A stretch of 64,000 bases of DNA from assembly GCA_934479825.1 (NCBI GenBank), contig CAKSOW010000001.1:132008-196007 (forward strand). The letters are read 5' to 3'. Both the position numbers and the translations under genes were made by a program. Source of the stretch: an uncultured Eubacteriales bacterium. GTDB lineage: Bacteria > Bacillota > Clostridia > Oscillospirales > CAG-382. The notes beneath the pieces are model-generated. The model searched no databases. It saw only the letters and a program-made list of their open reading frames with translations, and had not been told where the DNA came from. Below, piece after piece: positions 32,514-60,452 of this stretch; position 1 is the stretch's first letter; the number at the start of each line of letters is the position of its first letter.

Positions 32514-32550
32514 ATGCATCCTATCTTGTGTGGGATGCATTGCTCTTTTT
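32514..32550 (+). terminator. Intrinsic terminator after xerD
   Basis: ATGCATCC...GGATGCAT stem followed by TGCTCTTTTT. Confidence 0.6.
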
Positions 32551-32594
32551 AGGCAGATTTTGTCTGAAAAAAGCGCGTATGAAAGGACTTTTTC

Positions 32595-33644: not shown

Positions 33645-33650
33645 AACAAA

Positions 33651-33683
33651 ACAGAGCAGTCGCTTTTTTTGCGACTGCTCTGT
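33651..33683. terminator. Bidirectional intrinsic terminator between convergent genes
   Basis: ACAGAGCAGTCGC-TTTTTTT-GCGACTGCTCTGT, a perfect 13-bp stem flanked by A/T runs. Confidence 0.75.
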
Positions 33684-33705
33684 ATCGACTGTTATAAATT
33701 TCCGG

Positions 33706-34743: not shown

Positions 34744-34819
34744 TTCCTTTTACAAACATCAGTATAGCATATTTTTTCTGTTTTGAAAAGAGAAAACTTG
34801 AAATTTCGGAGGAATTTCT

Positions 34820-35431: not shown

Positions 35432-35503
35432 TTTAACCGCAAGCGTCATAAAATGTCCTGTATGAGTATTCAACCGAATTTTTGATACGGACGGTGACGG
35501 ATT

Positions 35504-36253: not shown

Positions 36254-36312
36254 AAGCGTGTCAAAAGTATTTCGTGACACGCATAAAAATCAATCTGTGG
36301 AGAATCTCTGTC

Positions 36313-37716: not shown

Positions 37717-38480
37717 ACATATCGAACAACCTTTTAAAATATGCAGTGGTTGACGAGCGTATGTCAGAAACCTGCAAACGCTCCTTGCGCCGCTATTATA
37801 AGCTGTTACAGTTGCCGTGTAACCGGTATTTTGATAAACCGATCAGCGCACATCCGGATTTGTTTCTTTTTCCGTATCACGAGGGATTTCTTATCGAACA
37901 GCGTGCTTCACAAATTCTCGCTTCCCTTGACGATAAACAAATGTTCTATTTTACAAATCCCATACCGCCGGAATCGGTGGTCCGGATTCGTGGGAGTAAG
38001 AAGGGCGTTGTGTATCCGAATGACTGTGCTTTGAATTTTGCAATGTGCGGAAATCATATCATCGGAAACCGGCAGGCGATACATCCGCGTATTGCAGGTC
38101 TTATATTAAAATATCATTGGAATTTTATCCCGATCAACCAAGGCTATGCAAAATGCAATGTCTGTACGGTTTCGGATAACGCCTTGATCACCGAGGACGA
38201 AGGTATTGCAAAAGCCTGTAAATCAAACAGAATCGACGTGCTGCTGTTAAAGAAAAAAGTTGTACAGCTGCCTGGTTATGATTACGGATTTATCGGCGGT
38301 GCAAGTTCGGCACCGTTCCATGCAGCAGACGGCACAAAACTGTTTTTCTGCGGATGTATTGAAGAACATCCGGAATTTGAAAAAATCCGTCGCTTTTGCC
38401 GCCAATATGATGTTCTGCCGGTATCGCTCTCAAATGAACCCTTGACCGACTATGGGAGCATTTTGCCGTTGATACGGTAG
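37713..38480 (+). CDS. Conserved hypothetical protein, translationally coupled to radA
   Basis: ATGA overlap with the radA stop. 255-aa ORF with globular composition. Family not recognised with confidence. Confidence 0.6.
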   Translation: MNISNNLLKYAVVDERMSETCKRSLRRYYKLLQLPCNRYFDKPISAHPDLFLFPYHEGFLIEQRASQILASLDDKQMFYFTNPIPPESVVRIRGSKKGVVYPNDCALNFAMCGNHIIGNRQAIHPRIAGLILKYHWNFIPINQGYAKCNVCTVSDNALITEDEGIAKACKSNRIDVLLLKKKVVQLPGYDYGFIGGASSAPFHAADGTKLFFCGCIEEHPEFEKIRRFCRQYDVLPVSLSNEPLTDYGSILPLIR

Positions 38481-38623
38481 AGAATACAACCTATTGAACA
38501 GATATATGTAATTATATAAAATAATAATTTTATATAATTCGGGAGAGGCCTGCTTAGAATTGACTGCCCAATATTTATACAGATATACAGAAGCTGAAAC
38601 CAAAGCAAAAAGAGGAATTTTAA

Positions 38624-39346
38624 ATGACATCATTTCAGACACGCATTGAAAGCTACGAAGTTCAGCCGAATGACAATGTTCGGCCATCCACCTTATTTCA
38701 TTTATTTCAGAAAGCCGCCGGCGACGATTTGGATGCAGCCGGCATGACTTACAACTATTTGCGCCAGCATGGAATCGTTTTCGTTGTAACCAAGTTCACA
38801 CTCGAATATTTTGATAACATTCATTCCTATGACAATGTGACCATTTCAACTTTTCCGCGCGGTTGCAGAGGCGTTTCTTTTATCCGTGATTTTGATGTTA
38901 CCATAAACGGAAAACGTGCCGCGTATGCATGCTCCTCTTGGGTTTTATTAGACATTCATAACCGCACGTTATTGCGCCCCAACGCACTCGATTCCCTTGG
39001 TACAATTACCCCCGATCTTTCGGATATGCTTGAATTGGAGGATCGAAGAATCAAATTCCGCGCTGACGAGATGTGCAAAACAGATGTTCGAGAAGTATAC
39101 TACTCCCAAATTGACCGTAACGGCCACATGAATAACACATTTTACCCGGATATTGTCTATGATTATTTTCCGGATTCGTATAAAAACGATGATATTGGCA
39201 AGAAATTTATTATAAATTATTCGTCTGAAATCATGCGTGGTGAAAAATTCGACATTTATACAGCGCAAAGCGATCGTGAATTCACTTTTCTTGCAAAAAA
39301 TCCGCAAACCGGCAAAGATATTTTTTCTGCGCTTATTGATTTTTAA
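38624..39346 (+). CDS. Acyl-ACP thioesterase
   Basis: AGAGGA RBS. YEVQPNDNVRPSTLFHLFQKAAGDDL...GIVFVVTKFTLEY and IDRNGHMNNTFY are typical of the double hot-dog Acyl-ACP_TE family. Confidence 0.8.
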   Translation: MTSFQTRIESYEVQPNDNVRPSTLFHLFQKAAGDDLDAAGMTYNYLRQHGIVFVVTKFTLEYFDNIHSYDNVTISTFPRGCRGVSFIRDFDVTINGKRAAYACSSWVLLDIHNRTLLRPNALDSLGTITPDLSDMLELEDRRIKFRADEMCKTDVREVYYSQIDRNGHMNNTFYPDIVYDYFPDSYKNDDIGKKFIINYSSEIMRGEKFDIYTAQSDREFTFLAKNPQTGKDIFSALIDF

Positions 39347-39451
39347 GAAAAAATACTGTATAATAATGACAGGAATCGGAATAACACTTATTTTTCGATC
39401 AAATTCCATTTCAACCACTACAATTCAATAATTCAATATGGAGGTATTTTC

Positions 39452-40066
39452 ATGATCAACTCGGTAATTACTATCAGTCGTCAATATGGCAGTGGCGGCA
39501 GATTCGTCGCGAGAAAACTTGCAGAAAAGCTTGGTATCCCCTTTTACGACAATGAAATTATCACCATGGCTGCCAAAGAAAGCGGCTATGCGGAAAATCT
39601 GTTTGAAAAAGCGGAACAGGTATCCACACACAGCCTTTTATATTCGTTATCCATGTTCGGAACAGCAGCCGGCGTTTACGGTTTACCGCTGTCGGATAAG
39701 GTCTTTTTAATCCAATCGGATATCATCAAGGAATGTGCCGCAAAAGGTCCGTGCGTCATTGTCGGACGCTGCTCGGACTATGTCTTAAAGGAACAGAACA
39801 ATTTAATCAACTTTTTCTTATATTCCGATATTGAATCACGCGTCAAACGCGTCCAAAAGTATTATGACAACGATGCCAAAGACATCCGTGCCGATATCGA
39901 ACGCCGCGACAAAAAGCGTGCGACCTATTATAACTACTATACCACCCAACGCTGGGGCGATATTGAAAACTATCATCTTTCGATTCATACCGATGCGGTT
40001 GGTATCGACAGTTGTGTTGACATTCTGGAAGCATTTGTCAAGGCGCACGAGCGCGAGGCATTATAA
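39452..40066 (+). CDS. Cytidylate kinase-like family P-loop protein
   Basis: ITISRQYGSGGRFVARKLAEKLGIPFYDNEII, the signature N-terminus of the cytidylate-kinase-like (AAA_28/CMK-like) family. Confidence 0.8.
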   Translation: MINSVITISRQYGSGGRFVARKLAEKLGIPFYDNEIITMAAKESGYAENLFEKAEQVSTHSLLYSLSMFGTAAGVYGLPLSDKVFLIQSDIIKECAAKGPCVIVGRCSDYVLKEQNNLINFFLYSDIESRVKRVQKYYDNDAKDIRADIERRDKKRATYYNYYTTQRWGDIENYHLSIHTDAVGIDSCVDILEAFVKAHEREAL

Positions 40067-40099
40067 GTCTGATTATCCAAAAATAATGAGGATCAGACA

Positions 40100-40645
40100 A
40101 TGACAGAAAAGCAGAAAAAGTTCATACAAGACCGGATTCATGAACGAAAAATGATTTGTGTCACACGAGGGACGATTGATCCGGAAAGCCGCTATACCGG
40201 TTTTCCGGTGTGGCTGTCTGATTCGCTTTTACTCATGACCAACATATACGATTTTCATGATGAGGGCTATATCCTGCTTCAAACTGCGGACCTTACAGAG
40301 GCTACTGCCAAAGATTCCGATTTTTATGAGCAAATCTGCATACGGGAAGGCTTAGGCGAAAAAGTATCGCTGTGCCCAATCAAAAAGGTCGGTTCTTATT
40401 CGGAGGCTTTGCGCCAATTCACGAATTATCCGGGATATATTTCCATTCATTGTGAAAACGAACAAGATATGCCGCAGTATTTTTTGGGACGTATCGATTC
40501 TTTGGAAGAAACCGGCGTAAAATTTGCTTCGCTCGGTTGCGATGGCGAATGGGATACGGCGCCGGAGTTTATTCTGTATGATAAAATTACAATGCTTGCA
40601 TGGGATGATTACTATGCGAAAATGTTTTATCATTACTGCAAATAA
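40100..40645 (+). CDS. Hypothetical cytoplasmic protein
   Basis: GAGGA RBS and a 181-aa ORF with no recognised motifs. Confidence 0.55.
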   Translation: MTEKQKKFIQDRIHERKMICVTRGTIDPESRYTGFPVWLSDSLLLMTNIYDFHDEGYILLQTADLTEATAKDSDFYEQICIREGLGEKVSLCPIKKVGSYSEALRQFTNYPGYISIHCENEQDMPQYFLGRIDSLEETGVKFASLGCDGEWDTAPEFILYDKITMLAWDDYYAKMFYHYCK

Positions 40646-40735
40646 TGGCCGGATTTTCAGAATGCCTGAAAAGAAGCCCTATAAGTTTGCGCTTGCAATC
40701 GATATCGAAAAGCCTTATCAGTTTAGGAATCAACG

Positions 40736-40777
40736 AAAAAAGCTCTTGAAATCAAATGTGATTTCAAGAGCTTTTTC
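40736..40777. terminator. Bidirectional intrinsic terminator
   Basis: AAAAA-AGCTCTTGAAATCA-AATG-TGATTTCAAGAGCT-TTTTC, a perfect 14-bp stem between convergent genes. Confidence 0.8.
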
Positions 40778-43411
40778 TTATCGTTTGACTCGTTTAAACC
40801 ATCGCTGCAAAGCCTTAGACACTTCCATTACCCCAAACGGCATAAGTATCAGAAAGACACCGAGCAGATACAATTGAGGCGGCAGAACAACAAGACCAAA
40901 CAGTGTGCGCAAGTGTGTGAACAGCACCATAGCAACCAATAAAACCGACGTGAGCGCCGCGCCGTTCAGCTTTTTGTTGGAAAAGATACCGATGTGGAAC
41001 AAAGATCGTTCCGAACGCATATTATATGCCTGCACGATCTGGGACAGCGAAAGTATCATAAACGCAAGCGTCTGTCCGCCCTCCAAGCCAACACTTTTTT
41101 CGGCGATAAAAAAGCCGAGCAAAGTCAGAAAACCGAACATGATTCCCTGGATGACGACGCGAAAGCCGAGTCCATGCGCAAAGATTCCTTCCCCACGTGG
41201 TTTGGGCGGCATTTCCATGACTTCTTTTTCCACCATTTCCATGCCGAGCGCCACAGCCGGCATACCGTCAGTAACAAGATTGATCCACAAAAGCTGCATA
41301 GAGACTAACGGCATTTTGTGCCATAAGATCATGGCTGCAAAAACGGTTATGACCTCGCCGATATTGGTGCCGAGAAGAAAGGCAACCACTTTCCGGATAT
41401 TGGCGTAAATCCCCCGCCCTTCCCGTACGGCTTCGACGACTGTTGCAAAATTATCATCGGTGAACACCATATCCGACGCACCTTTGGCAACATCCGTCCC
41501 GGTCTTTCCCATAGCACATCCGATATCGGCCGCCCCCAAAGCCGGTGCATCGTTGACGCCGTCTCCGGTCATAGCGACGACTTCACCGCGTGCTTGCCAA
41601 GCCTTGACAATGCGCAGTTTATCGCCCGGCGAAACACGCGCGTAAACACTGGTATTTTCCGCAGATTCCATAAGTTCTGCATCGTCCATTCGGTCAAGCT
41701 CCGCGCCGGTAACAGCCTTTTCACCGTCTGACAAAATACCGGTCGCCTTAGCCACGGCAACAGCGGTTGCTAAATGATCTCCGGTGATGAGGACCGGTCG
41801 GATACCGGCTTTTTTACAAAGAGCAACTGCCTCTGCCGCTTCTTTTCGCGGAGGATCGATCATACCGACAAGACCGACAAAAATTAGATCCTTTTCGATA
41901 TTCTCCATGTTTTCCGTCGGATTTTTGGGCAAAAACGGTAGTTCTCTGTATCCGACAGCCAAAACGCGAAGTGCCTGTTCTCCCATATTTTCCGCCGCTT
42001 TTTTGGCCGCAGGAATATCGCCCGACCGAAACAGCGTTGCCATACCGTCCAACGCGCCTTTGACGATTACGAAAATCTTTCCGTCGATACGGCAAATAAC
42101 CGTCATACGCTTTCGGTTGGAATCAAAGGGAATTTCTGCAAGCCGCACACACGATTCGGAGTTCATGTTTTTTGTCAGACCGCTTTTTTCTGCGGCCGAT
42201 AAAATGGCTGTCTCGGTCGGGTCGCCAATCTGTTTTTCCCCGTCTTTTCCGTGCAAGATCGTTCCGTTACAGCAAAGCGCGGCGTAAAACAGAAGCTTCC
42301 GGCCGGACGCTGTTAAAAAACTATTTTGTGTATCGAAAGGCACGGTTTTCTTTTCTGCTTCGGTATACAGTGCGCTTAAAGTCATCCGGTTCTGGGTGAG
42401 TGTTCCGGTTTTATCGGTACAGATAACCGACGCACTGCCCAAGGTTTCAACGGCCGGAAGACGTCGGATCAAGGCATTTCGCTTTGCCATGCGTTCCACG
42501 CCCATAGCAAGTACAATGGTGACAATTGCCGGAAGTCCCTCCGGAATTGCGGAAACGGCAAGAGAGACCGATGTCATGAAAATTTCAAGCACCGGTATAC
42601 CGCTCGCAACGCCGACACCGAAGATGACCAAGCACGCGGCCACTGCCATAATCCCCAAATAAGTGCCTAATCGGGAAAGCTTGATTTGCAAAGGTGTCAT
42701 ATCGGCTTTGGATAGATCAAGAAGCCCTGCGATCTTTCCCATTTCCGTATCCATGCCGGTAGAAGTGACAACCGCTGTTGCCGTGCCGGCGCTGACACTG
42801 CAACCGGAAAAAATCATGTTGCATCTGTCCCCGACCGGCGCGTTTTCGCTAAGTACGGCCGCGGCGTTTTTTTCGGCCGGTACCGATTCTCCGGTCAATG
42901 CCGATTCGTCGCATTTCAACCCGGAGCATTGCAAAAGCCGCGCGTCAGCCGGAACGATGTCGCCGCTCTCCAAGCACAGAATATCCCCCGGAACGATACT
43001 GCGTGCATCGATTCGCTTTTCTTCTCCGTCACGGATAACGCGCGTGAAAGGAGCGGAAAGCTCGTTTAGCGCTTCAAGTGCTTTCTCGGCTTTATTTTCC
43101 TGTAATACACCGATAATGGCATTGACTACAACGATGACGAGAATTAAAACCGGTTCAAAGAAATCAGCCTTATCGCCGCCCGTAAACGCAAGCATGAATG
43201 ATACGGCGGCCGCCGCAAGCAAAATGAGTATCATAACATCAGCAAACTGCTCAAAAAAACGGCGAATACTGTTCTTTTTCTTTTTTTCTTTCAGGCGGTT
43301 TTCTCCGTATTGTCCGATCCGCCCGATAACAGCGTCGGACGAAAGTCCCTTTTTTTCATCCGTTTCCAAGTATTTTAGCACTGCTGTACTTTTTGCCGCA
43401 AAAAATAGCAA
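40778..43411 (-). CDS. Cation-transporting P-type ATPase (Ca2+ type, P2A/P2B-like)
   Basis: CTDKTGTLTQN phosphorylation site, TGES, MTGDGVNDAPALGAADIG, ten predicted TM segments. Confidence 0.95.
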   Translation of the reverse strand: MLFFAAKSTAVLKYLETDEKKGLSSDAVIGRIGQYGENRLKEKKKKNSIRRFFEQFADVMILILLAAAAVSFMLAFTGGDKADFFEPVLILVIVVVNAIIGVLQENKAEKALEALNELSAPFTRVIRDGEEKRIDARSIVPGDILCLESGDIVPADARLLQCSGLKCDESALTGESVPAEKNAAAVLSENAPVGDRCNMIFSGCSVSAGTATAVVTSTGMDTEMGKIAGLLDLSKADMTPLQIKLSRLGTYLGIMAVAACLVIFGVGVASGIPVLEIFMTSVSLAVSAIPEGLPAIVTIVLAMGVERMAKRNALIRRLPAVETLGSASVICTDKTGTLTQNRMTLSALYTEAEKKTVPFDTQNSFLTASGRKLLFYAALCCNGTILHGKDGEKQIGDPTETAILSAAEKSGLTKNMNSESCVRLAEIPFDSNRKRMTVICRIDGKIFVIVKGALDGMATLFRSGDIPAAKKAAENMGEQALRVLAVGYRELPFLPKNPTENMENIEKDLIFVGLVGMIDPPRKEAAEAVALCKKAGIRPVLITGDHLATAVAVAKATGILSDGEKAVTGAELDRMDDAELMESAENTSVYARVSPGDKLRIVKAWQARGEVVAMTGDGVNDAPALGAADIGCAMGKTGTDVAKGASDMVFTDDNFATVVEAVREGRGIYANIRKVVAFLLGTNIGEVITVFAAMILWHKMPLVSMQLLWINLVTDGMPAVALGMEMVEKEVMEMPPKPRGEGIFAHGLGFRVVIQGIMFGFLTLLGFFIAEKSVGLEGGQTLAFMILSLSQIVQAYNMRSERSLFHIGIFSNKKLNGAALTSVLLVAMVLFTHLRTLFGLVVLPPQLYLLGVFLILMPFGVMEVSKALQRWFKRVKR

Positions 43412-43514: not shown

Positions 43515-43545
43515 CACTCGTTTTTCTTAATTTTCATTATAAGCG

Positions 43546-43630
43546 GACGCGCGGCGGTTTTGAGTATTCAAACCGCCTTGCGTCAAAAAATTAAATTCTT
43601 TTGCCGGGCTTTTCTTCTAAGAAAAGCCGC
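43546..43630. repeat. Monomeric copy (D) of the palindromic repeat module
   Basis: H1 GACGCGCGGCGGTTTTGAGTATTCAAACCGCCTTGCGTC (43546..43584), spacer AAAAAATTAAATTCTTTTGCC, H2 GGCTTTTCTTCTAAGAAAAGCC (43607..43628), tail GCATTCCC. Confidence 0.85.
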
Positions 43631-43646
43631 ATTCCCTTACTACGTT

Positions 43647-46874: not shown

Positions 46875-49637
46875 ATGAAAAAACGTTTTTTGCTTCCGTT
46901 TTTCTTTGCAGTGGTGTGTGCTGCGCTTCTAACAGTGTGCTTTGCCGAAACGCCGATGATTTTGTATGATTTCAGCGAAAAAAACAGCACGTGCTATTGG
47001 ACAACAAATCTGTCGCCTTCCGAAATCAGCGGCGATGCTTGGGTCGGGACGACCAACAAGATAAACAACATAATTGCGTTATCAACGGAGTCTTTACCGA
47101 TAAAAGGAGCTGATTATCCGTATTTTGTCTTTCGTGTAAAATACGAAATTCCTGAGGGAACGAATTATCTACCGATCTCCCATGCTTATTTTAAGATTGT
47201 GGATGAATCCGGAAATGTCGTTGCAGGTCTTTGGGACCAAAACGGCGCGAATAAAGGCCATACCATGAAAGCAAGCGACAACGGAAAATATGTTACTTAT
47301 TTTTATGATATGAGAGGTAACTCCACCTATATGGAAAACTATATTTCTCAGATAACGGTCGGCGTTGGTCTGTACTATACCGGCGTTAAGGTCGCTATGG
47401 ATTTTGCTGCATTTGCCTCCGATAAAAATGTGACTGTCACCTTTGCCGATCCGACAGAAAGCGCACTTTCTCTGCCGGAGCCTGCTAAAAGCGAACTCGG
47501 CTCCTCCATGGAGCTTGCCGGATATACAGCGCAGAAAGAAGATAACCGCTTACTCGGTTGGGCGCTCACGCCGAATGCGACCGAACCAATTGATCGAATC
47601 GACTGCGTAAAAGAAAATGTAACGCTCTACGCAATTTGGGAAAAAGCGGAAACCGTGAAGGTTACCTATCATATGGATGAGCAAAGTGAAATTGTTTTGA
47701 AAAATCCCGGCGACAGGCTGTATTCTCCTGTTACACCGACACGTGATGACGGGCTTATCTTCTACGGTTGGTCGGCTTCCGCTGACTCTTCCGATGTTTT
47801 GCCGTATGCTACGACTGTTACCCAAGCCACAGAAGTTTATGCTGTTTGGGGAGAGGGTTTTGAATGGAATTTTGATAAAGATGGCGATACAGAAATTACC
47901 ACCCCCGACCAGATAACCGGTGTTACCGTCCAAGGCGGCGCACTGCGCGGCACAACCTCCGGCAATGACCCAAAGTTGTTTCTTCGATTTAAAGCTGATT
48001 TGGGACATTTCAACACTGTAATTGTCCAAGGAACCGCTGATTCCGAAAACGGATCAGACAACGCATGGTTTCAGGTATATGCTGCATTTGATAAAGAATC
48101 TCTCGCAGAAGAACGAAGCATAAATAAAAACTTCTTATACGCGGAAGGACTTTCGGAACTTCGTTATTCCCTATACAAGGAGATAAAATCTGCTTCTTCT
48201 TATAAAAATATTAGGTTACTGCGCTTAGATCCCGGTTCACAAAGTAATATTAACCTTTGCATAGAACGCATTTTTGTTATCCCGGATGTGCCGGCTGCGG
48301 CACTATTTGATGCAGATGACGGCACAGGAATAATGCCGCGCATTCTTCCGGACGAAAACGGCTATGTCACCCTTCCGGAAAACAAATTTACTCATTCTTA
48401 TAAAATGTTTGAAGTGTGGACAGACGGAATGAACAACTATACACCTGGTACAAAAGTGAAAATTGATAGTTTTGTCACCTTCTACCCGAAATGGAAAGAA
48501 GGCAAAATCAAAAACCTTGATACTGAGTTTTATCCCGGTTTTACAAAAAAAGCACTGATTTTCAGCTATGATGATGGCAGCATGCCAGGCGATAAATCGT
48601 TAATCGAGCATTTGAATGCGGTCGGCTATGTTGGCTCTTTCAATATCATATCCAGCCATTGGAATACTTTAACCGAATCGCAGTTAGAAGAAAAGCGCCA
48701 TATTTATGCCGGTCACGAAATTGCCAACCACTCGTATACACATCCGCGAATGAATGAAAAAGACGAGATAACTGGCGAGTTTGTATTAACGGAAGAAGAA
48801 TGCATTAATGATATTGCTGCTGGCAAAGAAATGCTAGAAAAAGTTTTCGGTTATGAAGTAGTCGGCTTTGCATGGCCATATACGGTTCCTGCAGCACGCC
48901 CGGGTATTCGCAAGCATGCATGTGAAAATTACATTTATGCACGCGGTGCCGCTGACAATTATAGCTTTGATGTTCCTGATTCTTTCTTAGATGCGTGGAC
49001 TTTCACGGTTTATCAGGTTCGTTCTGAGGGTGTTTTAAAAACGTGTGCTGATAAATACAAGGATTATGATAGCACTAATCTCTCGCTATTCTCGGTTTGG
49101 GGACATTCATTCGAGTTTTACAACGGCAAGCTCTCGTTTGACGAATACGATGAGTTTCTGAATCTCTGTAAAACCATCGACCTCTGGAATCCGACCTGCG
49201 CTGACTATGTACGCTATGTCAATGCACATAAAGAAATGATAGTCGATTACGAGAACGTCTATAACCCCTCGGAATTTACCCAATACATCAAAGCGAACGG
49301 AGAAGAGATCGTACTTCCGGCCGGCGCTCGCTATGACGGAGAGACGGTATTCTGCAACAAGGCGCTTAACACCCAAAACGGTATTGAAGTTGCTGTTAAT
49401 CTCGACGCCAGAAAAGCAACCGGTGAAAAGGCGGCTTTTCTTACTGCGGTGTATGACAAGAACGGTAAGCTGATTTCCTGCCGGACTTCGGAAATTGCAG
49501 GCGGTATCCTGCAAACGGCGCGGACAGTATTACCTGCAACCTCCCAAGCCGTATCGGTCAAAGTATTTCTCTTTAACGATTTTTCTTCTTTTGCACCTTT
49601 GGACAACGCAAAAATCATTCCGGTTACGGCTGAGTGA
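46875..49637 (+). CDS. Secreted multidomain polysaccharide deacetylase (CE4/NodB) with Listeria-Bacteroides-type repeats
   Basis: Signal peptide. LLGWALTPNATEPIDRIDCVKENVTLYAIWE and FYGWSASADSSDV...VYAVWG repeats. NodB motifs FSYDDG and HEIANHSYTHP. C-terminal beta-rich domain. Confidence 0.85.
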   Translation: MKKRFLLPFFFAVVCAALLTVCFAETPMILYDFSEKNSTCYWTTNLSPSEISGDAWVGTTNKINNIIALSTESLPIKGADYPYFVFRVKYEIPEGTNYLPISHAYFKIVDESGNVVAGLWDQNGANKGHTMKASDNGKYVTYFYDMRGNSTYMENYISQITVGVGLYYTGVKVAMDFAAFASDKNVTVTFADPTESALSLPEPAKSELGSSMELAGYTAQKEDNRLLGWALTPNATEPIDRIDCVKENVTLYAIWEKAETVKVTYHMDEQSEIVLKNPGDRLYSPVTPTRDDGLIFYGWSASADSSDVLPYATTVTQATEVYAVWGEGFEWNFDKDGDTEITTPDQITGVTVQGGALRGTTSGNDPKLFLRFKADLGHFNTVIVQGTADSENGSDNAWFQVYAAFDKESLAEERSINKNFLYAEGLSELRYSLYKEIKSASSYKNIRLLRLDPGSQSNINLCIERIFVIPDVPAAALFDADDGTGIMPRILPDENGYVTLPENKFTHSYKMFEVWTDGMNNYTPGTKVKIDSFVTFYPKWKEGKIKNLDTEFYPGFTKKALIFSYDDGSMPGDKSLIEHLNAVGYVGSFNIISSHWNTLTESQLEEKRHIYAGHEIANHSYTHPRMNEKDEITGEFVLTEEECINDIAAGKEMLEKVFGYEVVGFAWPYTVPAARPGIRKHACENYIYARGAADNYSFDVPDSFLDAWTFTVYQVRSEGVLKTCADKYKDYDSTNLSLFSVWGHSFEFYNGKLSFDEYDEFLNLCKTIDLWNPTCADYVRYVNAHKEMIVDYENVYNPSEFTQYIKANGEEIVLPAGARYDGETVFCNKALNTQNGIEVAVNLDARKATGEKAAFLTAVYDKNGKLISCRTSEIAGGILQTARTVLPATSQAVSVKVFLFNDFSSFAPLDNAKIIPVTAE

Positions 49638-49675
49638 TTTAATACGCAGGGGCCGCTCTCTCCCTCACGCTTTGC

Positions 49676-49910
49676 CCCCAGTGATTTGAAAATTTAAATC
49701 ACTGGGGTTTTTGTTTTTCGTTAAGATCGATAATTTTGTGCTTAATTACAGCAACAGGCGAAGTGCGTTCGTCAACACTTCACATTCCTATTTCTGAATT
49801 TTCATCTTAATCAAGAGAACGCGCGGCGGTTTGAATTCTCAAAACCGCCGCGCATCAAAAACTAAATTCTTTTGCTAAGCTCTTCTTTAAACAATAAGAA
49901 AAGCTGCGTT
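49676..49910. repeat. Composite palindromic intergenic element, copy C (diverged dimeric copy)
   Basis: Hairpin CCCCAGTGATTTGAAAATTTAAATCACTGGGG plus T-run (49676..49720). The core ends in TTTTCATCTTAATCAAGAGAAC as in copy B. H1 GCGCGGCGGTTTGAATTCTCAAAACCGCCGCGC (49821..49853), spacer ATCAAAAACTAAATTCTTTTGC, degenerate H2. Confidence 0.75.
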
Positions 49911-49915
49911 TCCTT

Positions 49916-50422
49916 TCAATCTAAATACGCCATATTCGGTGCGATTTCAATAACACCGTCTTTGTATGAGGAATGATTGAAAAACTCATCGAAAAATTCC
50001 ATCGGCACATAGGTAACGCCGTCATAAATGACTGTTTCACAAGCATTTTTGATTTCTCTGCTAAGGTCGATCACCTTCAATTTTCCTTTGATTGATACCT
50101 CGGCTGTTCCGTCATAGAGGGTGGCCATTTGCGTATAGGCATCCTCCACCGTGACAGCGCCGCTTTTTTCATCCCACGTCACGGTATAGCCGAGTGCCTC
50201 AGCCACCAATCGCAGGGGCACCATATAGGTGTTGTTTTCAGCGTAAGGGGCTTTCGGGAGCATACTTGTATCAAGCTCTTTTTCCGATACACGAAGAACT
50301 GTTTTAAATTCTTCCGGAGCGACAGCTGAGATATCCGGTGTGGATGCCTCCGCAACATTGGAGAGCAGACACATGGAGAGAATACAAAGGCCGATAACGA
50401 GATAACTGACAAAGTTTTTCAT
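49916..50422 (-). CDS. Secreted copper-amine-oxidase N-terminal (stalk-like) domain protein
   Basis: Start MKNFVSYLVIGLCILSMCLL after a GGAGGA RBS. MVPLRLVAEALGYTVTWDEKSGAVTV is the hallmark of the Cu_amine_oxidN1 fold. Confidence 0.8.
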   Translation of the reverse strand: MKNFVSYLVIGLCILSMCLLSNVAEASTPDISAVAPEEFKTVLRVSEKELDTSMLPKAPYAENNTYMVPLRLVAEALGYTVTWDEKSGAVTVEDAYTQMATLYDGTAEVSIKGKLKVIDLSREIKNACETVIYDGVTYVPMEFFDEFFNHSSYKDGVIEIAPNMAYLD

Positions 50423-50503
50423 AAGCGATCCTCCTTGGAACGATTTCGGTTGATACCCATAAGACGCTATCACCGGAAAAAAGTTCCGCTTTGTTATAAA
50501 AAT

Positions 50504-51790
50504 TCAATGTGATTTGAAGGGCGCGACCAGATGTTTTTCGGAATACAGCGGTGAATAGAGCGTCTTATCCGTGCAGAGCACCCCACGCCGGATAACATGA
50601 ATCCCGTATTGCGAACGAAGCATATCCACCGTTCGGTCAAGCTCTTCGGTTTTTTCGGTATCCGTCTCAAAAAGCGACTTCTGATACTCTTCGCCGCAGA
50701 CAACAAACCCCGAAGTCCGCACACCGAGCGAGCGAAGTGTAAGACCTTCCGGAAAACTGCGATGATACAGCGCAAGAGCCTCTTCGGCAAGCGTTCTTTC
50801 ATGATTGGTCGGCAAAACACCGCATTGTTTTTCCACGACCTTTAAATCCGGATCCCGTAACGATATCTGCAAGACCGTTGCTTTTAAAGATGCCTTGCGA
50901 AGCCTTGAACAAACCTTATCACAGAGCGCGTAAATCAAAACCTTGATATCCTCTTGCGTCGTCATGTCGCGTGGTGTGGTGGCGGAATTCCCGATACTTT
51001 TGATAACATCTTTATAGACAAGATTCTGTACCGGGGATGCGTCGTATCCGCAGGCATTGAGAAACAGCGTTTCACCGCTTTTTCCGAGTATCGAACGGAA
51101 AAAGGCACCGTTTTTTTCCGCCACATCGCCAATCGTCTCCACTGAAAAGCTGTGCAAACGTTTTTGGGTACTGCGTCCGGCATACATCAGTTCCCCAATG
51201 GCAAGCTTCGATATTACCGGCACATATTCGTCCGGGCCGAAAACAGTCACAGCGTCCGGCTTCTTGTAGTCGCTGGCCAATTTTGAAAACGTCTTATTGT
51301 CGCTGACCCCGACCGAAACGGTAAGTCCGGTCGCTTCAAAAACATCTTTCCGCAAACGGTTGGCGGCTGAAATACCGTCGTCAAGGGTTTTGACTCCGTG
51401 GATTCCTGTAAGTTCCAGCCATGCTTCATCCATGCCGAACGGCTCAACGCGGTCGCTGTAACGGGCATAAACGGCACGGACTTTCTGCGAATAATACAAA
51501 TACTCCTCATAGTGCGGCTCCAAAACCACAAGTGCCGGACAAAGCTGTTTAGCCTGCCAGATCACCTGCCCTGTTTTAATACCGCATTTTTTTGCCAAAT
51601 TGTTTTTGGCGAGCACAATGCCGTGCCGTTCCTCTTTGTTGCCGCATACCGCTACCGGATAGGCCGAAAGAGCCTTATGTTTCAAGCACTCTACGGACGC
51701 AAAAAAATTATTTAGATCGGAATGCAGAACGATTCTGCCGCGGTTGATTCCTTGATGTGTGATATATTTTTCCGCTTCTGTCGCTAACAT
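50504..51790 (-). CDS. dinB: DNA polymerase IV (Y-family)
   Basis: IVLHSDLNNFFASVE, EPFGMDEAWLELT, SVGVSDNKTFSKLASD. Start at MLATEAEK (51790) preferred over 51865. Confidence 0.9.
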   Translation of the reverse strand: MLATEAEKYITHQGINRGRIVLHSDLNNFFASVECLKHKALSAYPVAVCGNKEERHGIVLAKNNLAKKCGIKTGQVIWQAKQLCPALVVLEPHYEEYLYYSQKVRAVYARYSDRVEPFGMDEAWLELTGIHGVKTLDDGISAANRLRKDVFEATGLTVSVGVSDNKTFSKLASDYKKPDAVTVFGPDEYVPVISKLAIGELMYAGRSTQKRLHSFSVETIGDVAEKNGAFFRSILGKSGETLFLNACGYDASPVQNLVYKDVIKSIGNSATTPRDMTTQEDIKVLIYALCDKVCSRLRKASLKATVLQISLRDPDLKVVEKQCGVLPTNHERTLAEEALALYHRSFPEGLTLRSLGVRTSGFVVCGEEYQKSLFETDTEKTEELDRTVDMLRSQYGIHVIRRGVLCTDKTLYSPLYSEKHLVAPFKSH

Positions 51791-52017: not shown

Positions 52018-53067
52018 ATGAAAAATGTGAAAAACACCTCCAAACGTCTTGCGCTTGCTTTTCTTGCCGTTGCCCTTACTGCGACTTTGCTTGTTTCTCT
52101 CGTTGCCTGCGGAAGTAAGGCCTATTACGATAACTCGGATTATTTGATGGACACTTCCGAAAGTCCAGGCTCTCCTTCCGGCGGTGCGGAGGCAAAAAGC
52201 TCCCGTGATTATAACGGTAACTACTCTTTTGGCACTAGGGCTGAAAATTACTATGATTCCGACGGAGCCGCTATGGAATCGGAAAGTCAATCCTCTCTTG
52301 CCGAACAAGCAGAAACTGCGCGAAAAATCATTTACACCTCCTATTTCAGCGTTCAGACGACGGAATTTGATCAAGCAGCCGCCGCGCTTGACCGCTTATG
52401 CGAAAAATACGGCGCTTACTATGAACGGTCAGATACCTACGGATACGCCGATGAGGGAAACCGAAACGGTTCTTTTACCATTCGCGTACCGGCGGACAAA
52501 TATCAAGCGTTTCGCACCGAGGCCGGAAATATCGGAACAGTGGTGCATTCAACCGAAAACAACGAAGACGTCAGTGAACGGTATTTCGATACCGAAGCGC
52601 GCTTGTCCAGCGCCAAGCTCCGCGAAGAGCGGTTATTGGACATTTTAAGCAAAGCAGAAAGCCTCGACAATGTGCTCCTTTTGGAATCTGAACTTGCCGA
52701 TGTTCGTTATGAGATTGAAAGCCTTTCCGGAACGCTACGCCGCTATGATTCGTTGATCAGCTATTCCACCGTCAATATCGATTTGCAGGAGGTCTTTAAA
52801 CCGATTGCGGTTCAGACAATGCCCAAAACGTTTGGCGAGCGGATTTCGCAGGCTGTATCAAACGGATTCCGTGACTTTGGCAATACCATGGAAGATTTTG
52901 CGGTGGATGTTTCGTATGGGTTACCGGGCATCTTGCTGTTTGTGATTTTTGTGGTCATTTTGGTTATTGTTATCCGAGTTATTATCAAAAAAGCCGGAAA
53001 AAAGGCGAAAAACAAAGCAAAGCCGGAAATTCCGGCCGAACAGCCAAAGAACGATGATAGCAAATAA
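52018..53067 (+). CDS. DUF4349-like lipoprotein with C-terminal TM anchor
   Basis: Lipobox LVACGS, low-complexity linker, FTIRVPADKYQAFRTE..., coiled-coil region, C-terminal GILLFVIFVVILVIVIRVII. Confidence 0.7.
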   Translation: MKNVKNTSKRLALAFLAVALTATLLVSLVACGSKAYYDNSDYLMDTSESPGSPSGGAEAKSSRDYNGNYSFGTRAENYYDSDGAAMESESQSSLAEQAETARKIIYTSYFSVQTTEFDQAAAALDRLCEKYGAYYERSDTYGYADEGNRNGSFTIRVPADKYQAFRTEAGNIGTVVHSTENNEDVSERYFDTEARLSSAKLREERLLDILSKAESLDNVLLLESELADVRYEIESLSGTLRRYDSLISYSTVNIDLQEVFKPIAVQTMPKTFGERISQAVSNGFRDFGNTMEDFAVDVSYGLPGILLFVIFVVILVIVIRVIIKKAGKKAKNKAKPEIPAEQPKNDDSK

Positions 53068-53081
53068 GGCTGTGCACTGGG

Positions 53082-53380
53082 TAAGGGCTGCTCACCCTTA
53101 AACCTCGCCCACTTTTCTTAAAAGAAAAGTGGGACAAAAGAATTTGATTTTTTGTCCCCGCCATTTGAATTCTCAAATCGCCGGGGACTTTTTATCTTAG
53201 TGAAAATGAAAAAATGTACTATTTTAAAAGTGAGGCATGTTTTCCAACAATTCGCACCACAATCTCCCAATTTTTCATCTTTAATCAAGAGAACGCGCGG
53301 AGGTTTTGAGTATTCAAACCGCCGCGCGTTAAAACTAAATTCTTTTGCCAGGCTTTTCTTCTAAGAAAAGCCGCGTTCCC
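53082..53380. repeat. Composite palindromic intergenic element, copy B (reverse complement of copy A)
   Basis: Hairpins at 53108..53133 (CCCACTTTTCTTAAAAGAAAAGTGGG), 53156..53186, 53292..53330 (AACGCGCGGAGGTTTTGAGTATTCAAACCGCCGCGCGTT) and 53351..53372 (GGCTTTTCTTCTAAGAAAAGCC). By hand, the reverse complement aligns to 4102..4420 over its full length with a few indels in the core. Confidence 0.85.
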
Positions 53381-53395: not shown

Positions 53396-54001
53396 TTAAT
53401 CCAATTCAATCCTTTTATCTGCAACGCTCTCCGCTTCGGCACGGTCATGCGTTACCCAAAGCACCGTCTTTCCTTTGCATTTTTTAAGAATATAGGAGGC
53501 AACTAACTTTTTGTTATCCTCGTCCAATCCGCTTGTCGGTTCATCGAGAAACACAAAAGCGCTGTCACATAGCATCGCACGCAAAATAGCAACGCGCCGT
53601 TTCATTCCTCCGCTGAGAGAAGAAACAGGCTTGTTCAACAACGTTCGCTCCATCCCGACCTCTTCAAGCATATCGCCAAGATCGGAACGTGCAACTTTTT
53701 CGACAAGTCTTAAATTCCGGTAAACCGTAACATTTTCAACAAGCCGGTTTTCCTGAAAAACGAAAGCGATTTTTGCATTTTTGTCCGGAATACCGACCAC
53801 TGTTCCGCTATCCGGCTTGATAAGGCCGGCTAACAAATAAAGTAACGTCGTTTTTCCGCAACCGGATTCGCCCATTAAGCACGTAACCGCATTATCCGGA
53901 ATTTTGGCGCAAAAATCCGCTAGAACCGCCTTTTCATCAAAGGACTTCGAGAGGTTTTCAATCACAATCGACACCGGCTCACATCCTTTCAAACAGCGCA
54001 A
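53396..54001 (-). CDS. ABC transporter ATP-binding protein (NitT/TauT-type importer)
   Basis: Walker A GESGCGKTT, signature LSGGMKRR, Walker B VFLDEPTSGLD. Start uncertain (ATG 54001 or GTG 53974). Confidence 0.85.
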   Translation of the reverse strand: MRCLKGCEPVSIVIENLSKSFDEKAVLADFCAKIPDNAVTCLMGESGCGKTTLLYLLAGLIKPDSGTVVGIPDKNAKIAFVFQENRLVENVTVYRNLRLVEKVARSDLGDMLEEVGMERTLLNKPVSSLSGGMKRRVAILRAMLCDSAFVFLDEPTSGLDEDNKKLVASYILKKCKGKTVLWVTHDRAEAESVADKRIELD

Positions 54002-59307: not shown

Positions 59308-59377
59308 GCTTTTCGTTTCGCGAAAAACAGAAAGAGACGGTTTTTGTGTTACTTTTTCGCTTGTACGAAAAAGTAAC
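59308..59377. repeat. Left arm of a 70-bp imperfect inverted repeat (two hairpins) flanking a gene-less 885-bp segment
   Basis: GCTTTTCGTTTCGCGAAAAACAGAAAGAGACGGTTTTTGTGTTACTTTTTCGCTTGTACGAAAAAGTAAC. By hand, close to 90 percent identical to the reverse complement of 60263..60334. Confidence 0.8.
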
Positions 59378-60262
59378 CAAAAAGTACACCAGAGGGTTGC
59401 GACCCTCTGGATACCCCAAGTACGGTTCAAACCCCGTGCGGTAAATTTTTTGCTAAAAACTTGAAAGGTTCAGCACGTTAAGATTTTTTGCAAAAGCTTA
59501 TTAGTGCCGCAAACACGCACGGCCATGTTTTGAACCGGTGCGAACCGCAAGTGTTGCACAGGCGCAAAATCGGGGTTCACGAAAAATCGAAAGTACTGTG
59601 CAGGCTTGCCGCCGCAAGCACTTGACTAAAAGGGAAAGTGCGCGTTATACTTGTTGCAGTGGAAAAGGAAAATTGTGTAGGCGTAGTAGAAAGTTTTGTG
59701 CAAAGCTGCGGCTTGGGCGCACCAATACCCCGCGGACAGGCAAAAATTTTAGATTTATCCAAATATTTTCGTGTTCAGAAAGACGGAATTTTGCACTCTC
59801 TCACCAAACTTCCTTATTTCAAAAAACAGCTTTCTGTTCTCACAAAAACAAATTCCTACCAAACGCCCCATTTCCTGAAACACATAACCTACTGTCTACC
59901 CAAATCAAAGTTTGCCTTTATATAAACACCCACAAATCCTTGCGCAGTAAAACCGCCGTCTCGCACCGGTTCAAAATACTCCGAGCTATATTGCACAAAA
60001 CGGCGATTTTCTATAAAGATTTCCTGAAAGCGCATAGCTTGCGGTTTAGTAAAAACTTCCACGCTCGAAATTTTGAACCGAGGTCGCAGGGCAAAGCCGA
60101 CTCCTTGAAACATGGTCGTCTTGTTCGCGTCCGCTCACAATACTCCCTGTTTCGGCGGTCTCCGACACGCCAAAACTTGCCACCGCAACTTTTGACGCGT
60201 CCGAGCAGCTGCTTTTTGGTTCTTTTTGCAGAAGCAAAAAGAACATAAAAACGTCCCTTTTA

Positions 60263-60334
60263 GTTACTTTTTCGTACAAACGAAAAAGTAACTAAAAAAT
60301 CGTCTCTTTTCTTGCTTTTCGTGAAACGAAAAGC
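60263..60334. repeat. Right arm of the 70-bp inverted repeat
   Basis: GTTACTTTTTCGTACAAACGAAAAAGTAACTAAAAAATCGTCTCTTTTCTTGCTTTTCGTGAAACGAAAAGC. Confidence 0.8.
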
Positions 60335-60368
60335 GTTCTTTCCGGGCATTTCCGGAAAAGCAAAAGCC

Positions 60369-60452
60369 GCCCTGCGTCACAGAACATTTCGTGACGCAGG
60401 GCGCCAAAATCAAAATTCTTTTGCTCGGCTTTTTCTTCTAAGAAAAGCCGCG
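60369..60452. repeat. Monomeric copy (F) of the palindromic repeat module with a completely different H1 stem
   Basis: H1 GCCCTGCGTCACAGAACATTTCGTGACGCAGGGC (60369..60402), spacer GCCAAAATCAAAATTCTTTTGCT, H2 CGGCTTTTTCTTCTAAGAAAAGCCG (60426..60450), tail CGTTCCCC. On the minus strand, H1 is followed by GGCTTTTGCTTTT and probably terminates the XRE gene. Confidence 0.8.

Follow-up and report, generated by a model that had tools for sequence, protein, structure and literature searches.

The window analysed here is a stretch of 64,000 nucleotides from an uncultured Eubacteriales bacterium, and at two places in it the 3' ends of convergent genes are separated by copies of one 300-bp unit. Copy A lies between the genes at 1163-4090 (+) and 4435-10200 (-), and copy B, in inverted orientation and 49 kb away, lies between the genes at 52018-53067 (+) and 53396-54001 (-). 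These coordinates agree with the convergent placement described in an earlier note made from the sequence alone, which had also called copy B a full-length inverted copy of copy A. The reverse complement of 53082-53380 matches 4122-4419 with 93% identity when only aligned bases are considered and about 85% when indels are counted, the value that had been estimated by eye; mean column identity is 85% with MAFFT, and BLAST gives 85.0-85.4% across 306-308 columns. In a global alignment of the two copies, 265 positions match, 20 are mismatched and 48 columns are gaps, 20 of which correspond to a tandem duplication specific to copy A (4102-4121), with the other indels including one of 10 bp and one of about 11 bp in the AT-rich core. 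The alignment scores 402, whereas random chunks of 299 bp taken from the window reach 15 at most; the longest identical stretches measure 58 bp (4350-4407), 40 bp and 33 bp. The core, the two spacers and all five hairpins can be aligned between the copies, and the example strings quoted in the earlier note are accurate. The unit can be read as a type-1 module, an AT-rich core, an inverted type-2 module and a fifth hairpin, with the following features in copy A:

4102-4121, forward strand: tandem duplication (20 bp) of the left end of the element, GGGAACGCGGCTTTTCGAAG, found in copy A only and adjoining GGGTACGCGGCTTTTCTTAG at 4122-4141
4122-4223, forward strand: module M1 (type 1; cmsearch 120.4 bits), which follows the NAGPA/SLH gene (stop at 4090) and contains hairpin 1 (4130-4151), the mirror tract CAAAAGAATTT (4155-4165) and hairpin 2 (4173-4211; -26.4 kcal/mol), with the tail TTCTCTT
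4224-4301, no strand: AT-rich core
4302-4400, reverse strand: module M2 (type 2; cmsearch 82.1 bits), which follows the FG-GAP/fn3 gene (stop at 4435) and contains hairpin 4 (4369-4394), the mirror tract (4357-4367) and hairpin 3 (4317-4348; -21.2 kcal/mol), with the tail AGCCTTTTATTCTT
4403-4419, reverse strand: hairpin 5, AAGGGCTGCTCGCCCTT, 15 nt from the stop codon

The corresponding features of copy B are:

53083-53099, forward strand: hairpin 5, AAGGGCTGCTCACCCTT, 15 nt past the DUF4349 gene stop at 53067
53102-53201, forward strand: module M5 (type 2; cmsearch 84.9 bits), which contains hairpin 4 (53108-53133), the mirror tract (53135-53145) and hairpin 3 (53154-53188; -18.8 kcal/mol), with the tail ACTTTTTATCTT
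53202-53279, no strand: AT-rich core, with a 10-bp deletion and an insertion of about 11 bp relative to copy A
53280-53380, reverse strand: module M6 (type 1; cmsearch 115.6 bits), which follows the ABC ATPase gene (stop at 53396) and contains hairpin 1 (53351-53372), the mirror tract (53337-53347) and hairpin 2 (53292-53330; -23.3 kcal/mol)

As single strands, both units fold very strongly (z = -7.2 and -7.7). The core is non-coding, lacks a conserved ORF and shows the lowest conservation within the unit; in copy A, its first 35 nt or so are common to two single modules described below (M3 and M4), and the remainder is common to copy B only. A small RNA or micro-ORF could in principle be encoded here and transcribed outward from a promoter in the core, with the hairpins supplying structure and a terminator. 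Copy A has a promoter-like sequence, TTGCTA-18-TATAAT, at 4262-4291, the core of copy B holds a 19-codon ATG ORF, and an outward transcript would contain the H-Y-R block order able to form a U.A-U RNA triple helix. The promoter-like sequence is not kept in copy B, however, which has lost the -35 hexamer and gained 11 bp ahead of the -10 hexamer; in copy A, ATA stands in place of the ATG of the mini-ORF; and no Rfam family comes near threshold. Scanned with Rfam, the whole window yields no family at gathering thresholds, and a permissive scan over both dimers returned generic hairpin matches only, all of them sub-threshold. Together with the poor conservation of the core, these observations make a core-encoded product very improbable. 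A micro-ORF ending at TAA, TAG or TGA at a fixed position after the mirror tract was also considered, and an in-frame start codon is absent.

What the earlier note missed is that A and B belong to a dispersed family of hairpin-rich cassettes, specific to the species and located just past gene ends. At least eight modules are present in the 64-kb window, every one directly 3' of a stop codon and in the same orientation, with hairpin 1 gene-proximal and a distance from stop codon to module start of 10-40 nt in all eight. In addition to the four modules of the dimers, the family comprises:

43534-43636, reverse strand: single module M3 (type 1; cmsearch 104.1 bits), which comes after the amidase/SH3 gene (stop at 43647) and has a separate, plain terminator-like hairpin behind it
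49806-49913, reverse strand: single module M4 (type 1; cmsearch 99.3 bits), which follows the Cu_amine_oxidN1 gene (stop at 49916); both M4 and most of this gene are absent from strain L067
60354-60457, reverse strand: module M7 (cmsearch 86.5 bits), which follows the HTH gene (stop at 60479) and keeps the mirror tract (60413-60423) and hairpin 1, whereas hairpin 2 is unrelated (60368-60404, -30 kcal/mol, tail GCTTTTGCTTTT)
30221-30319, forward strand: decayed module M8 (cmsearch 54.9 bits), which follows the ABC transporter gene (stop at 30201), with hairpin 2 (30270-30307; -30.3 kcal/mol) and the tail TCCTTTTAT
23452-23499, forward strand: hairpin-2-type terminator-like element without hairpin 1 (GCGCGCGAGGGTCTGAAACGCAGACTTTCGCGCG and TTCTTTTATTTTTG; cmsearch 32.9 bits) that has a long T run and follows a gene whose end is at 23420

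A module spans about 100-135 nt and consists of an AT-rich hairpin 1, a linker of 3-5 nt, the invariant tract CAAAAGAATTT, a GC-rich hairpin and a U-rich tail. The arms of hairpin 1 are a pyrimidine 5' arm, CTTTTCTT, and a purine 3' arm, AAGAAAAG, and the invariant tract mirrors the purine arm. Seven of the modules were used to build a covariance model, which scores those seven at 82-120 bits and detected the eighth, decayed copy; the consensus structure contains 27 pairs, of which 8 show compensatory changes, and an invariant spacer without pairing. The pattern AGAAAAGNNNRRCAAAAGAATTT, allowing up to three mismatches, has eight matches in the window (0.07 expected), seven of which fall inside modules. 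M1 and M6 are 92% identical and M2 and M5 are 90% identical, with identity of about 65% between type 1 and type 2.

Within the window, the distal core, hairpin 5, the type-2 module and the pairing of a type-1 with a type-2 module are exclusive to A and B, and the layout of type-1 module, core and type-2 module is the same in both. Because only these two copies possess the core and the paired types, the dimer was propagated as a unit, as the earlier note had argued, and a single copying of the whole dimer would account for A and B. A dimer between convergent genes obeys the rule of a module after each stop codon in either orientation, and thus the inverted arrangement of A and B is probably incidental. 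The repeat family also explains why short-read assemblies of the species break at these sites, with independent contigs ending inside the repeat (L063, at window position 4153; L068, L069, L077 and L081-83).

What the modules do is suggested by their second hairpins. Stems of hairpin 2 and its equivalents have stabilities of -19 to -30 kcal/mol, 5-7 U residues occur within the first 8-11 nt of the tails (UUCUCUU, CUUUUAUUCUU, CUUUUUAUCUU, CCUUUUAU or CUUUUGCUUUU), and all lie 3' of stop codons; the hairpin-2-type element at 23452-23499 ends a gene in this way without any hairpin 1. Hairpin 2 or 3 with its U-rich tail is therefore most likely, judging from these sequence features, the intrinsic terminator of the upstream gene. 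A scan with a strict terminator consensus flagged none of them, because the stems are mismatched and, in the type-1 tail UUCUCUU, the run of U residues is interrupted. The inverted module layout of the 300-bp unit would accordingly make it a back-to-back, bidirectional terminator cassette between convergent genes. The second, plain terminator-like hairpin following M3 implies that a module is not always the sole terminator, and in such cases a module may be inserted between a stop codon and a pre-existing terminator.

The copy-B site in relatives is consistent with this view. In two related species with conserved synteny (L075 and L084), the orthologous gap between the DUF4349 and ABC genes measures 81-83 bp and carries a single conserved, plain 40-bp bidirectional terminator, CAAAAGGCTCATGC...GCATGAGCCTTTTG, which is missing from the window; no modules were found in the roughly 45 kb sampled from these species. 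Since the relatives hold a simple terminator at this position, copy B is a lineage-specific acquisition in a terminator position, where the dimer would have displaced the ancestral bidirectional terminator. By what route it was copied is a matter of candidates, namely recombinational spread or mobilisation in trans. The explanation judged best overall, and a rather probable one, is that A and B are composite, species-specific intergenic repeats that serve as terminator cassettes at gene ends and are not dedicated recombination sites.

Inverted repeats of this length might nevertheless act as recombination sites, and the earlier note had proposed that homologous exchange between them would invert the intervening 48.7-kb segment, as a polymorphism or a switch. 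With about 85% identity and identical runs of up to 58 bp, rare RecA-type exchange is physically possible, and intrastrand triplex repeats, the kind of sequence to which the modules appear to belong, have been tied to local genome instability (PMC4666352). The window and the ENA record of the same scaffold differ at one base in 20 kb, and that base is in the hairpin 4 loop of copy B, where the window has TT, as does copy A, and strains L064-L067 have GT; this fits gene conversion from A to B and fits an assembly chimera equally well. Against an inversion, however, all contigs that span copy B have the same ABC/repeat/DUF4349 junction, and the four consensus assemblies of the species (ERZ28614200, ERZ27287570, ERZ28565276 and ERZ27287143) give no sign of an inverted segment, though assemblies of this type could miss an invertant present in a minority. 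The DUF4349/ABC adjacency is likewise unchanged in the two related species that lack the repeat, and the present orientation is therefore ancestral. A dif site or replication terminus between the copies was considered and rejected, there being no dif-like match above chance; no recombinase gene or domain is present among the window genes examined, and at least six other family copies in both orientations mean that the A/B pair is not singled out. GC skew has no break at 53 kb; its sign change near 32-40 kb tracks gene orientation. Inversion through A and B is thus improbable, and the answer to the question originally asked is mostly deflationary: the inverted pair is explained by a gene-end repeat family, and the 49-kb inversion is unsupported.

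More difficult to set aside is the proposal that the 300-bp unit is a non-autonomous mobile element, either MITE-like, with structured terminal inverted repeats (TIRs) of about 100 bp, or REPIN/BIME-like, that is mobilised in trans and whose position at gene ends reflects target preference or tolerated sites. Terminal inverted modules around an AT-rich, non-coding core, a total length near 300 bp and the absence of a conserved ORF are all in keeping with such an element, as are the extreme single-strand folding of the unit, its presence at site B and absence from the orthologous site of two related species, and the dispersal of the family into subtypes and decayed copies. Target-site duplications, however, are found at neither A nor B, whose flanks have no duplicated sequence in common, and at site B the ancestral terminator is gone and not split by an insertion. 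No transposase or RAYT gene was found among the window genes scanned with Pfam (about 73 kb of the genome being covered), and a neighbouring TIR-bounded segment of 1 kb, at 59.3-60.3 kb, considered as a possible source of a transposase, contains an ORF without a Pfam or NCBIfam match. The unit is unmatched in phage and plasmid collections, and matches to the pattern in viral contigs are chance matches inside coding sequence; a metagenome scan with the hairpin-2 sequence revealed no new sites, its sole match being copy B of another strain. Single modules and the hairpin-2-only copy point to a mosaic of sub-elements and not to one transposing unit, and all eight modules share one direction relative to the upstream gene. 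Mobility in trans is, on this balance, unlikely, if less so than inversion, and the terminator-cassette explanation is preferred.

The remaining part of each module, hairpin 1 with its mirror tract, is by its sequence an AT-rich intrastrand triplex motif of the PIT/BoxC/TMECO kind, for which a triplex in vivo is predicted. ITxF motifs are defined by Y, R and mirrored reverse-Hoogsteen R blocks on one strand, with stems of 6-15 nt, loops of 1-6 nt and at most one mismatch where the stem exceeds 7 nt (PMC4666352). The modules have CTTTTCTT (8 nt), a 2-nt loop (AG or AA), AAGAAAAG (8 nt), a 5-nt linker and CAAAAGAA (8 nt), the last with one mismatch at its first base, and the motif occurs in five exact and three degenerate copies. 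On the gene-sense, non-template DNA strand it is of class II (Y-R-R), and on the opposite strand of class IV (H-Y-R).

Covariation of the tract with the purine arm, as its mirror image, extends across Clostridia and candidate-phyla genomes. Six distinct A-run classes agree exactly (permutation p = 0.004), and among 65 hairpin sides not chosen by the search pattern, the exact mirror word is present in 28, as compared to 5.5 expected, and the direct word in 1. In Saccharibacteria and Nomurabacteria, an AT-rich motif of the triplex type directly trails tmRNA and tRNA genes, and Saccharibacteria MAGs have the order gene, Y/R hairpin, mirror tract and terminator hairpin 3' of the tmRNA, tRNA-Trp and tRNA-Arg genes. 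No association of the motif with tRNA genes was seen in the window or in Christensenellaceae loci. The orientation of the motif relative to genes is mixed at Christensenellaceae-type loci (19 vs 27), and the orientation rule observed in the window may therefore be a property of the attached terminator rather than of the triplex motif.

How a triplex might act in this setting is constrained by work on the G/C-rich triplex repeats of Escherichia coli (PIT/TMECO), which showed neither promoter nor terminator activity and no stable triplex within duplex DNA in vivo (PMC4666352). Purine-motif triplexes, moreover, are not formed in RNA (PMC4666352), and thus no role for the mirror tract at the mRNA level is apparent. 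A triplex in the non-template DNA strand during termination is plausible, as is a U.A-U RNA triple helix where the motif lies in the opposite orientation, upstream of ribosome-binding sites. A more far-reaching and tentative possibility is that hairpin 1 and the mirror tract form a selected, functional triple helix that marks gene boundaries, recurs in distant bacteria (the gut Eubacteriales species studied here, Christensenellaceae and other Clostridia, Saccharibacteria and Nomurabacteria) and has, in several of these lineages, been fused with intrinsic terminators into copyable cassettes. If so, the mirror covariation would be the first comparative-sequence evidence for selection keeping a bacterial intergenic triplex. 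AT-rich triplex motifs have previously been catalogued in bulk only, and the G/C-rich ones have been given no function; mirror-image covariation provides a clean comparative signal for constraint on the AT-rich class. The family itself illustrates the replacement of simple terminators by larger, copy-propagated cassettes in an uncultured gut Clostridia species.

Several known systems resemble the cassettes in part. REP/BIME elements of Enterobacteria are GC-rich imperfect palindromes of 35-40 bp that occupy extragenic 3' regions, singly, as inverted pairs or in mosaics (summarised in PMC4666352). Hairpins 2 and 3 are likewise imperfect palindromes of 32-39 bp, and eight modules and one hairpin-2-only copy occur in 64 kb, all extragenic and including two inverted clusters; both kinds of repeat are species-specific, multi-copy, mosaic with short motifs and linked to mRNA 3' ends. 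The modules differ from REP/BIME in their unrelated sequence, their AT-rich triplex motif and core of about 80 bp; no RAYT gene was seen in the sequence examined. With MITEs of the Correia, RUP and ERIC type the unit has in common a length of about 300 bp, a lack of coding capacity, TIRs, an AT-rich centre, a long RNA hairpin and presence or absence at orthologous sites. It departs from them in that its arms, which are inverted modules only about 65% alike and are also found alone, are unaccompanied by a target-site duplication, in its single orientation relative to upstream genes, and in that the orthologous sites of L075 and L084 are not cleanly empty but hold a different 40-bp terminator, indicative of replacement of the ancestral one. 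Ordinary bidirectional terminators share with A and B their location and the strong GC hairpins with U-rich tails that face each gene, but consist of one hairpin of about 40 bp with A and T tracts, whereas A and B contain a pair of separate hairpins together with two triplex motifs, hairpin 5 and a core, and are repeated and copy-propagated.

Among triple helices, RNA from the H-Y-R strand has the potential for six U.A-U triples along with one C+.G-C triple, similar in composition to the stabilising triple helices of the ENE/MALAT1 type (reviewed in PMC7583470). In the latter a U-rich internal loop clamps a 3' A tract, whereas the motif here would adopt a simple fold-back topology in a hypothetical transcript, and the H-Y-R strand in the window is antisense to the flanking genes. 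The closest likeness is to the PIT/BoxC/TMECO repeats (Holder et al. 2015, PMC4666352, citing Hoyne et al. 2000), which have the same succession of Y arm, R arm and mirrored R block on one strand (class II), with a complementary strand of the pyrimidine-motif class. Both groups have conserved stems and variable loops and are strictly intergenic and multi-copy, and the close inverted pairs of TMECO types A and B (PMC4666352) recall the pairing of type 1 with type 2. Membership of BoxC/TMECO itself was rejected, as the consensus CCCTCNCCC N3-6 GGGNGAGGG N3 GGGNGAGGG (PMC4666352) is not matched by the sequence-unrelated, A/T-rich blocks CTTTTCTT, AAGAAAAG and CAAAAGAA. The hosts are Proteobacteria for TMECO as compared to a gut Clostridia species here. 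Judged from sequence, then, the cassettes at A and B appear to belong to a known kind of repeat, the intrastrand triplex repeats, with presumptive triplex formation and a presumptive terminator role; TMECO repeats lack strand bias and terminator activity, whereas the motif of this family is fused to a GC-rich, terminator-type hairpin that always lies just 3' of a stop codon.

The 300-bp unit near 4102-4420 (copy A) and its inverted counterpart at 53082-53380 (copy B) had been described in the earlier note as full-length reverse-complement copies, about 85 percent identical by eye, and both statements hold: the reverse complement of 53082-53380 matches 4122-4419, and the alignment takes in five hairpins, two spacers and an AT-rich core, with a mean column identity of 85% in MAFFT and 85.0-85.4% in BLAST (306-308 columns). 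When the two are aligned globally, 265 columns match, 20 mismatch and 48 are gaps, equivalent to 93% identity over aligned bases; the score is 402, and random chunks of the window reach no more than 15. Twenty of the 48 gap columns correspond to an A-specific 20-bp tandem duplication (4102-4121), the left terminus of copy A being present in tandem duplicate (4102-4141; two 20-bp units, 17/20 identical), so that A is 20 bp longer than B; the other gaps include indels of 10 bp and about 11 bp, both in the core. That this core yields a small RNA or a micro-ORF is extremely improbable, since promoter and ORF are both unconserved between A and B.

The two copies belong to a family and are not an isolated pair. 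A repeat search found extra partial copies near 43.5, 49.8 and 60.4 kb, and the pattern AGAAAAGNNNRRCAAAAGAATTT, taken from the most conserved part, has eight matches at up to three mismatches, as compared to 0.07 expected. A covariance model trained on seven module copies scores them at 82-120 bits, and additionally detects a decayed eighth copy (30221-30319) and, at 23452-23499, a relative with hairpin 2 alone. The module is about 100 nt long, or about 135 nt when roughly 35 nt past hairpin 2 that are common to single copies are included, and is built as follows.

Parts of the module, in order
GGGAACG
Hairpin 1, GGCTTTTCTT AG AAGAAAAGCC
Linker of 5 nt
Invariant tract, CAAAAGAATTT
Short AT stretch
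Hairpin 2, a GC-rich stem of 15-17 bp
T-rich tail

Both hairpins are backed by RNAalifold (27 pairs, 8 with compensatory changes), the invariant tract is left unpaired in the consensus, and hairpin 2 has an energy of -19 to -30 kcal/mol across modules. Two subtypes can be distinguished, type 1 (M1, M6, M3, M4, M8 and M7) and type 2 (M2 and M5, with the adjoining hairpin 5, their hairpins 4 and 3 being the counterparts of hairpins 1 and 2). M1 and M6 are 92% identical, M2 and M5 are 90% identical, and modules of different type are about 65% identical. Copies A (M1, core, M2) and B (M5, core, M6) each consist of a type 1 module, a core and an inverted type 2 module. Only A and B have the distal core, hairpin 5 and a type 2 module, so the earlier inference that the dimer was propagated as a unit holds. 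A repeat of another sort occupies 13342-14609, where nine copies with a 69-bp period (60-72% identity) lie within the gene at 12852-14936; this gene has LRR_5 Pfam matches in locus L062, and the copies are therefore probably protein repeat units.

Each of the eight modules begins 10-40 nt past the stop codon that ends a real gene, and hairpin 1 is the gene-proximal part.

Genes followed by a module
NAGPA/SLH protein
FG-GAP/fn3 giant protein
ABC transporter
Amidase/SH3 protein
Cu_amine_oxidN1 protein
DUF4349 protein
ABC ATPase
HTH regulator

Dimers are found where each of two convergent genes has a module, and the convergent 3' ends reported to flank both copies are indeed present at A (NAGPA/SLH and FG-GAP/fn3 genes) and at B (DUF4349 and ABC ATPase genes). 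Because a dimer in either orientation meets the module-after-stop rule, the inverted arrangement of the pair is probably incidental. Between the HTH gene and lepA, a segment of about 1 kb (59308-60334) has inverted repeats at its two ends (57 nt at 88% and 30 nt at 83%), which hold another Y/R hairpin, GTTACTTTTTCG...CGAAAAAGTAAC, with a mirror-like GTTTTTG before it. Neither Pfam nor NCBIfam gave a match for the segment's sole long ORF (59598-60248), and in strain L067 part of the segment is just 83% identical, with flanks at about 98.8%.

The window is 100% identical to ENA ERZ28614200 scaffold_206 across the 14 kb in common with L062. The organism is classed as an uncultured 'Eubacteriales bacterium', and its nearest relatives come from human-gut metagenomes. 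Copy B has the same place and orientation in the same-species assemblies L065, L066, L067 and L077 (98.3-99.99% identical), and several short-read contigs stop within the repeat (L063, at window position 4153, L068, L069, L077 and L081-83), as expected of a multi-copy sequence. Two related species, whose DUF4349 proteins are 61% and 67% identical to that of the window, retain synteny (DinB, DUF4349, then convergent ABC, permease, NMT1, Dabb and HemN, with LepA additionally present in L075), and their DUF4349/ABC gap of 81-83 bp holds a single conserved bidirectional terminator, CAAAAGGCTCATGC...GCATGAGCCTTTTG. Given this short gap with one terminator, and the absence of any module by covariance model in about 45 kb from the two species, copy B is a lineage-specific acquisition at a site that held a terminator. 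It took the place of the ancestral terminator and did not split it, and no target-site duplication can be seen. A MITE- or REPIN-like mobile element would account for the shape and the presence/absence pattern of the units, but it is an unlikely source, as target-site duplications and a clean insertion are both lacking and the window genes examined include no transposase. In L067 (98.8% identical overall), the stretch at 9444-9990, which corresponds to 49363-50506 of the window, has a 43-codon remnant instead of the Cu_amine_oxidN1 gene, with a plain terminator, AAGGACACGTCGAAAAAACGTGTCCTT, and without module M4, indicating a strain-level indel associated with a module site.

The earlier note also regarded the copies as recombination substrates that would invert the 48.7-kb segment between them. 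The longest exact A/B runs (58, 40 and 33 bp) would permit rare homologous exchange, but inversion was not observed: the parental ABC / repeat / DUF4349 junction is present in every spanning contig (four assemblies), and the suggested synteny comparison found the same DUF4349/ABC adjacency in both related species, so that the window orientation is ancestral. GC skew has no break at 53 kb. Cumulative skew has its maximum near 30-34 kb, and genes converge near 40.7 kb (region 30000-42000); as no dif-like site lies between A and B, this pattern probably reflects the strand of the genes rather than a replication terminus. Over 20 kb, the window departs from the ENA record of its scaffold (L064) only at 53120-53121, in the hairpin 4 loop of copy B, where the window has TT, the same as copy A, and L064-L067 have GT, which hints at A/B sequence exchange (gene conversion) or at an assembly chimera at the repeat. 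Inversion, while possible in principle, is not needed to account for the repeats, and an invertible segment is very unlikely.

Hairpin 1 and its tract have counterparts well beyond the window species. A pattern scan across one genome per species gave many chance matches, and also a coherent set from Christensenellaceae and other Clostridia MAGs and from Saccharibacteria and Nomurabacteria MAGs. In this set the 5' arm CTTTTCTT is present without having been demanded by the pattern. When all pyrimidine-arm / purine-arm hairpins in these loci were listed, the A-rich tract downstream was found to be the mirror image of the purine arm, varying along with it.

Purine arms and their downstream tracts
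AAGAAAAG, tract CAAAAGAA
AAAGAAAG, tract CAAAGAAA
AAGAAAAAG, tract CAAAAAGAA
GAAAAGAAAGAA, tract CAAAGAAAAG
AAAGAAAAGAA, tract CAAAAGAAA
AGAAAAG, tract CAAAAGA

Six A-run classes match exactly (automatic parse; permutation p = 0.004). With pattern-selected instances left out, an exact mirror word is found on 28 of the 65 informative hairpin sides that remain, versus 5.5 expected from same-composition rearrangements, and a direct-repeat word on one of the 65. A mirror relation is not a product of duplication or inversion, nor is it what a symmetric DNA-binding protein reads; it is the signature of an intrastrand triplex, which may form in vivo. The purine-rich strand reads Y-R-R (class II, purine motif; A.A-T and G.G-C triads) and the complementary strand H-Y-R (class IV, pyrimidine motif; T.A-T and C+.G-C triads). 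Bacterial intrastrand triplex motifs were catalogued by Holder et al. 2015 (PMC4666352), following Hoyne et al. 2000, and the window motif falls within their search criteria. The G/C-rich BoxC/PIT/TMECO repeat studied there is always intergenic, without strand bias and sometimes in inverted type A and type B pairs; its single strand forms a triplex in vitro, neither promoter nor terminator activity was seen for it, and it is associated with variability of the genome nearby (PMC4666352). Unlike TMECO, the window motif is A/T-rich and unrelated in sequence, and a literature search found no paper describing this particular repeat family.

In Saccharibacteria MAGs, as in the window species, a gene is followed by a Y/R hairpin, then a mirror tract, then a terminator hairpin; such modules lie directly 3' of a tmRNA gene (L010), tRNA-Trp (L018) and tRNA-Arg (L031). 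In L010 (418-958), a module comes immediately after the tmRNA gene (418-772) and faces a second, inverted one. Together they make up a compact convergent dimer that resembles A and B in layout but has unrelated terminator hairpins. In Christensenellaceae-type loci, 47/48 motifs are intergenic, orientations relative to genes divide 19 versus 27, and a common layout is an inverted pair with one motif past a stop codon and one just before the next gene's ribosome-binding site. A gltX-ychF inverted pair of mini triplex motifs (L058 4407-4520; orthologous sites in L001, L006, L007, L015, L038, L046, L050 and L061) consists of CTTTCTTTCTTT/AAAGAAAGAAAG with CAAAGAAAT, and of AAATTCTTTTG with CTTTTCTT/AAGAAAAG, the second terminating at the ychF ribosome-binding site and oriented so that a U.A-U RNA triple helix could form in the 5' UTR. 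As both orientations occur in these loci, the triplex motif itself is orientation-free, like TMECO; the strict orientation in the window species most likely stems from the fused terminator hairpin. The Acutalibacteraceae MAG L013 (2433-3810) carries four copies in 1.4 kb of a different family, with a G/C-richer Y/R hairpin (CCTTCCCCT nn AGGGGAAGG), conserved flanks and no obvious mirror tract.

We read the 300-bp units, with moderate confidence, as back-to-back terminator cassettes with triplex-capable elements, made of two family modules and set between convergent genes. Hairpins 2 and 3 with their U-rich tails would terminate the two incoming transcripts, and hairpins 1 and 4 with their tracts would be triplex-capable passengers or auxiliary elements between stop codon and terminator, their motifs lying on the non-template strand in the class II arrangement, which is able to form at neutral pH; any specific role of the triplex is put forward more tentatively. 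The inverted pair becomes ordinary once the family is recognised, and what merits following up is the cross-phylum mirror covariation and the fusion of the motif with terminators. The family joins known kinds of element, the REP/BIME-like mosaic repeats and the intrastrand triplex repeats.
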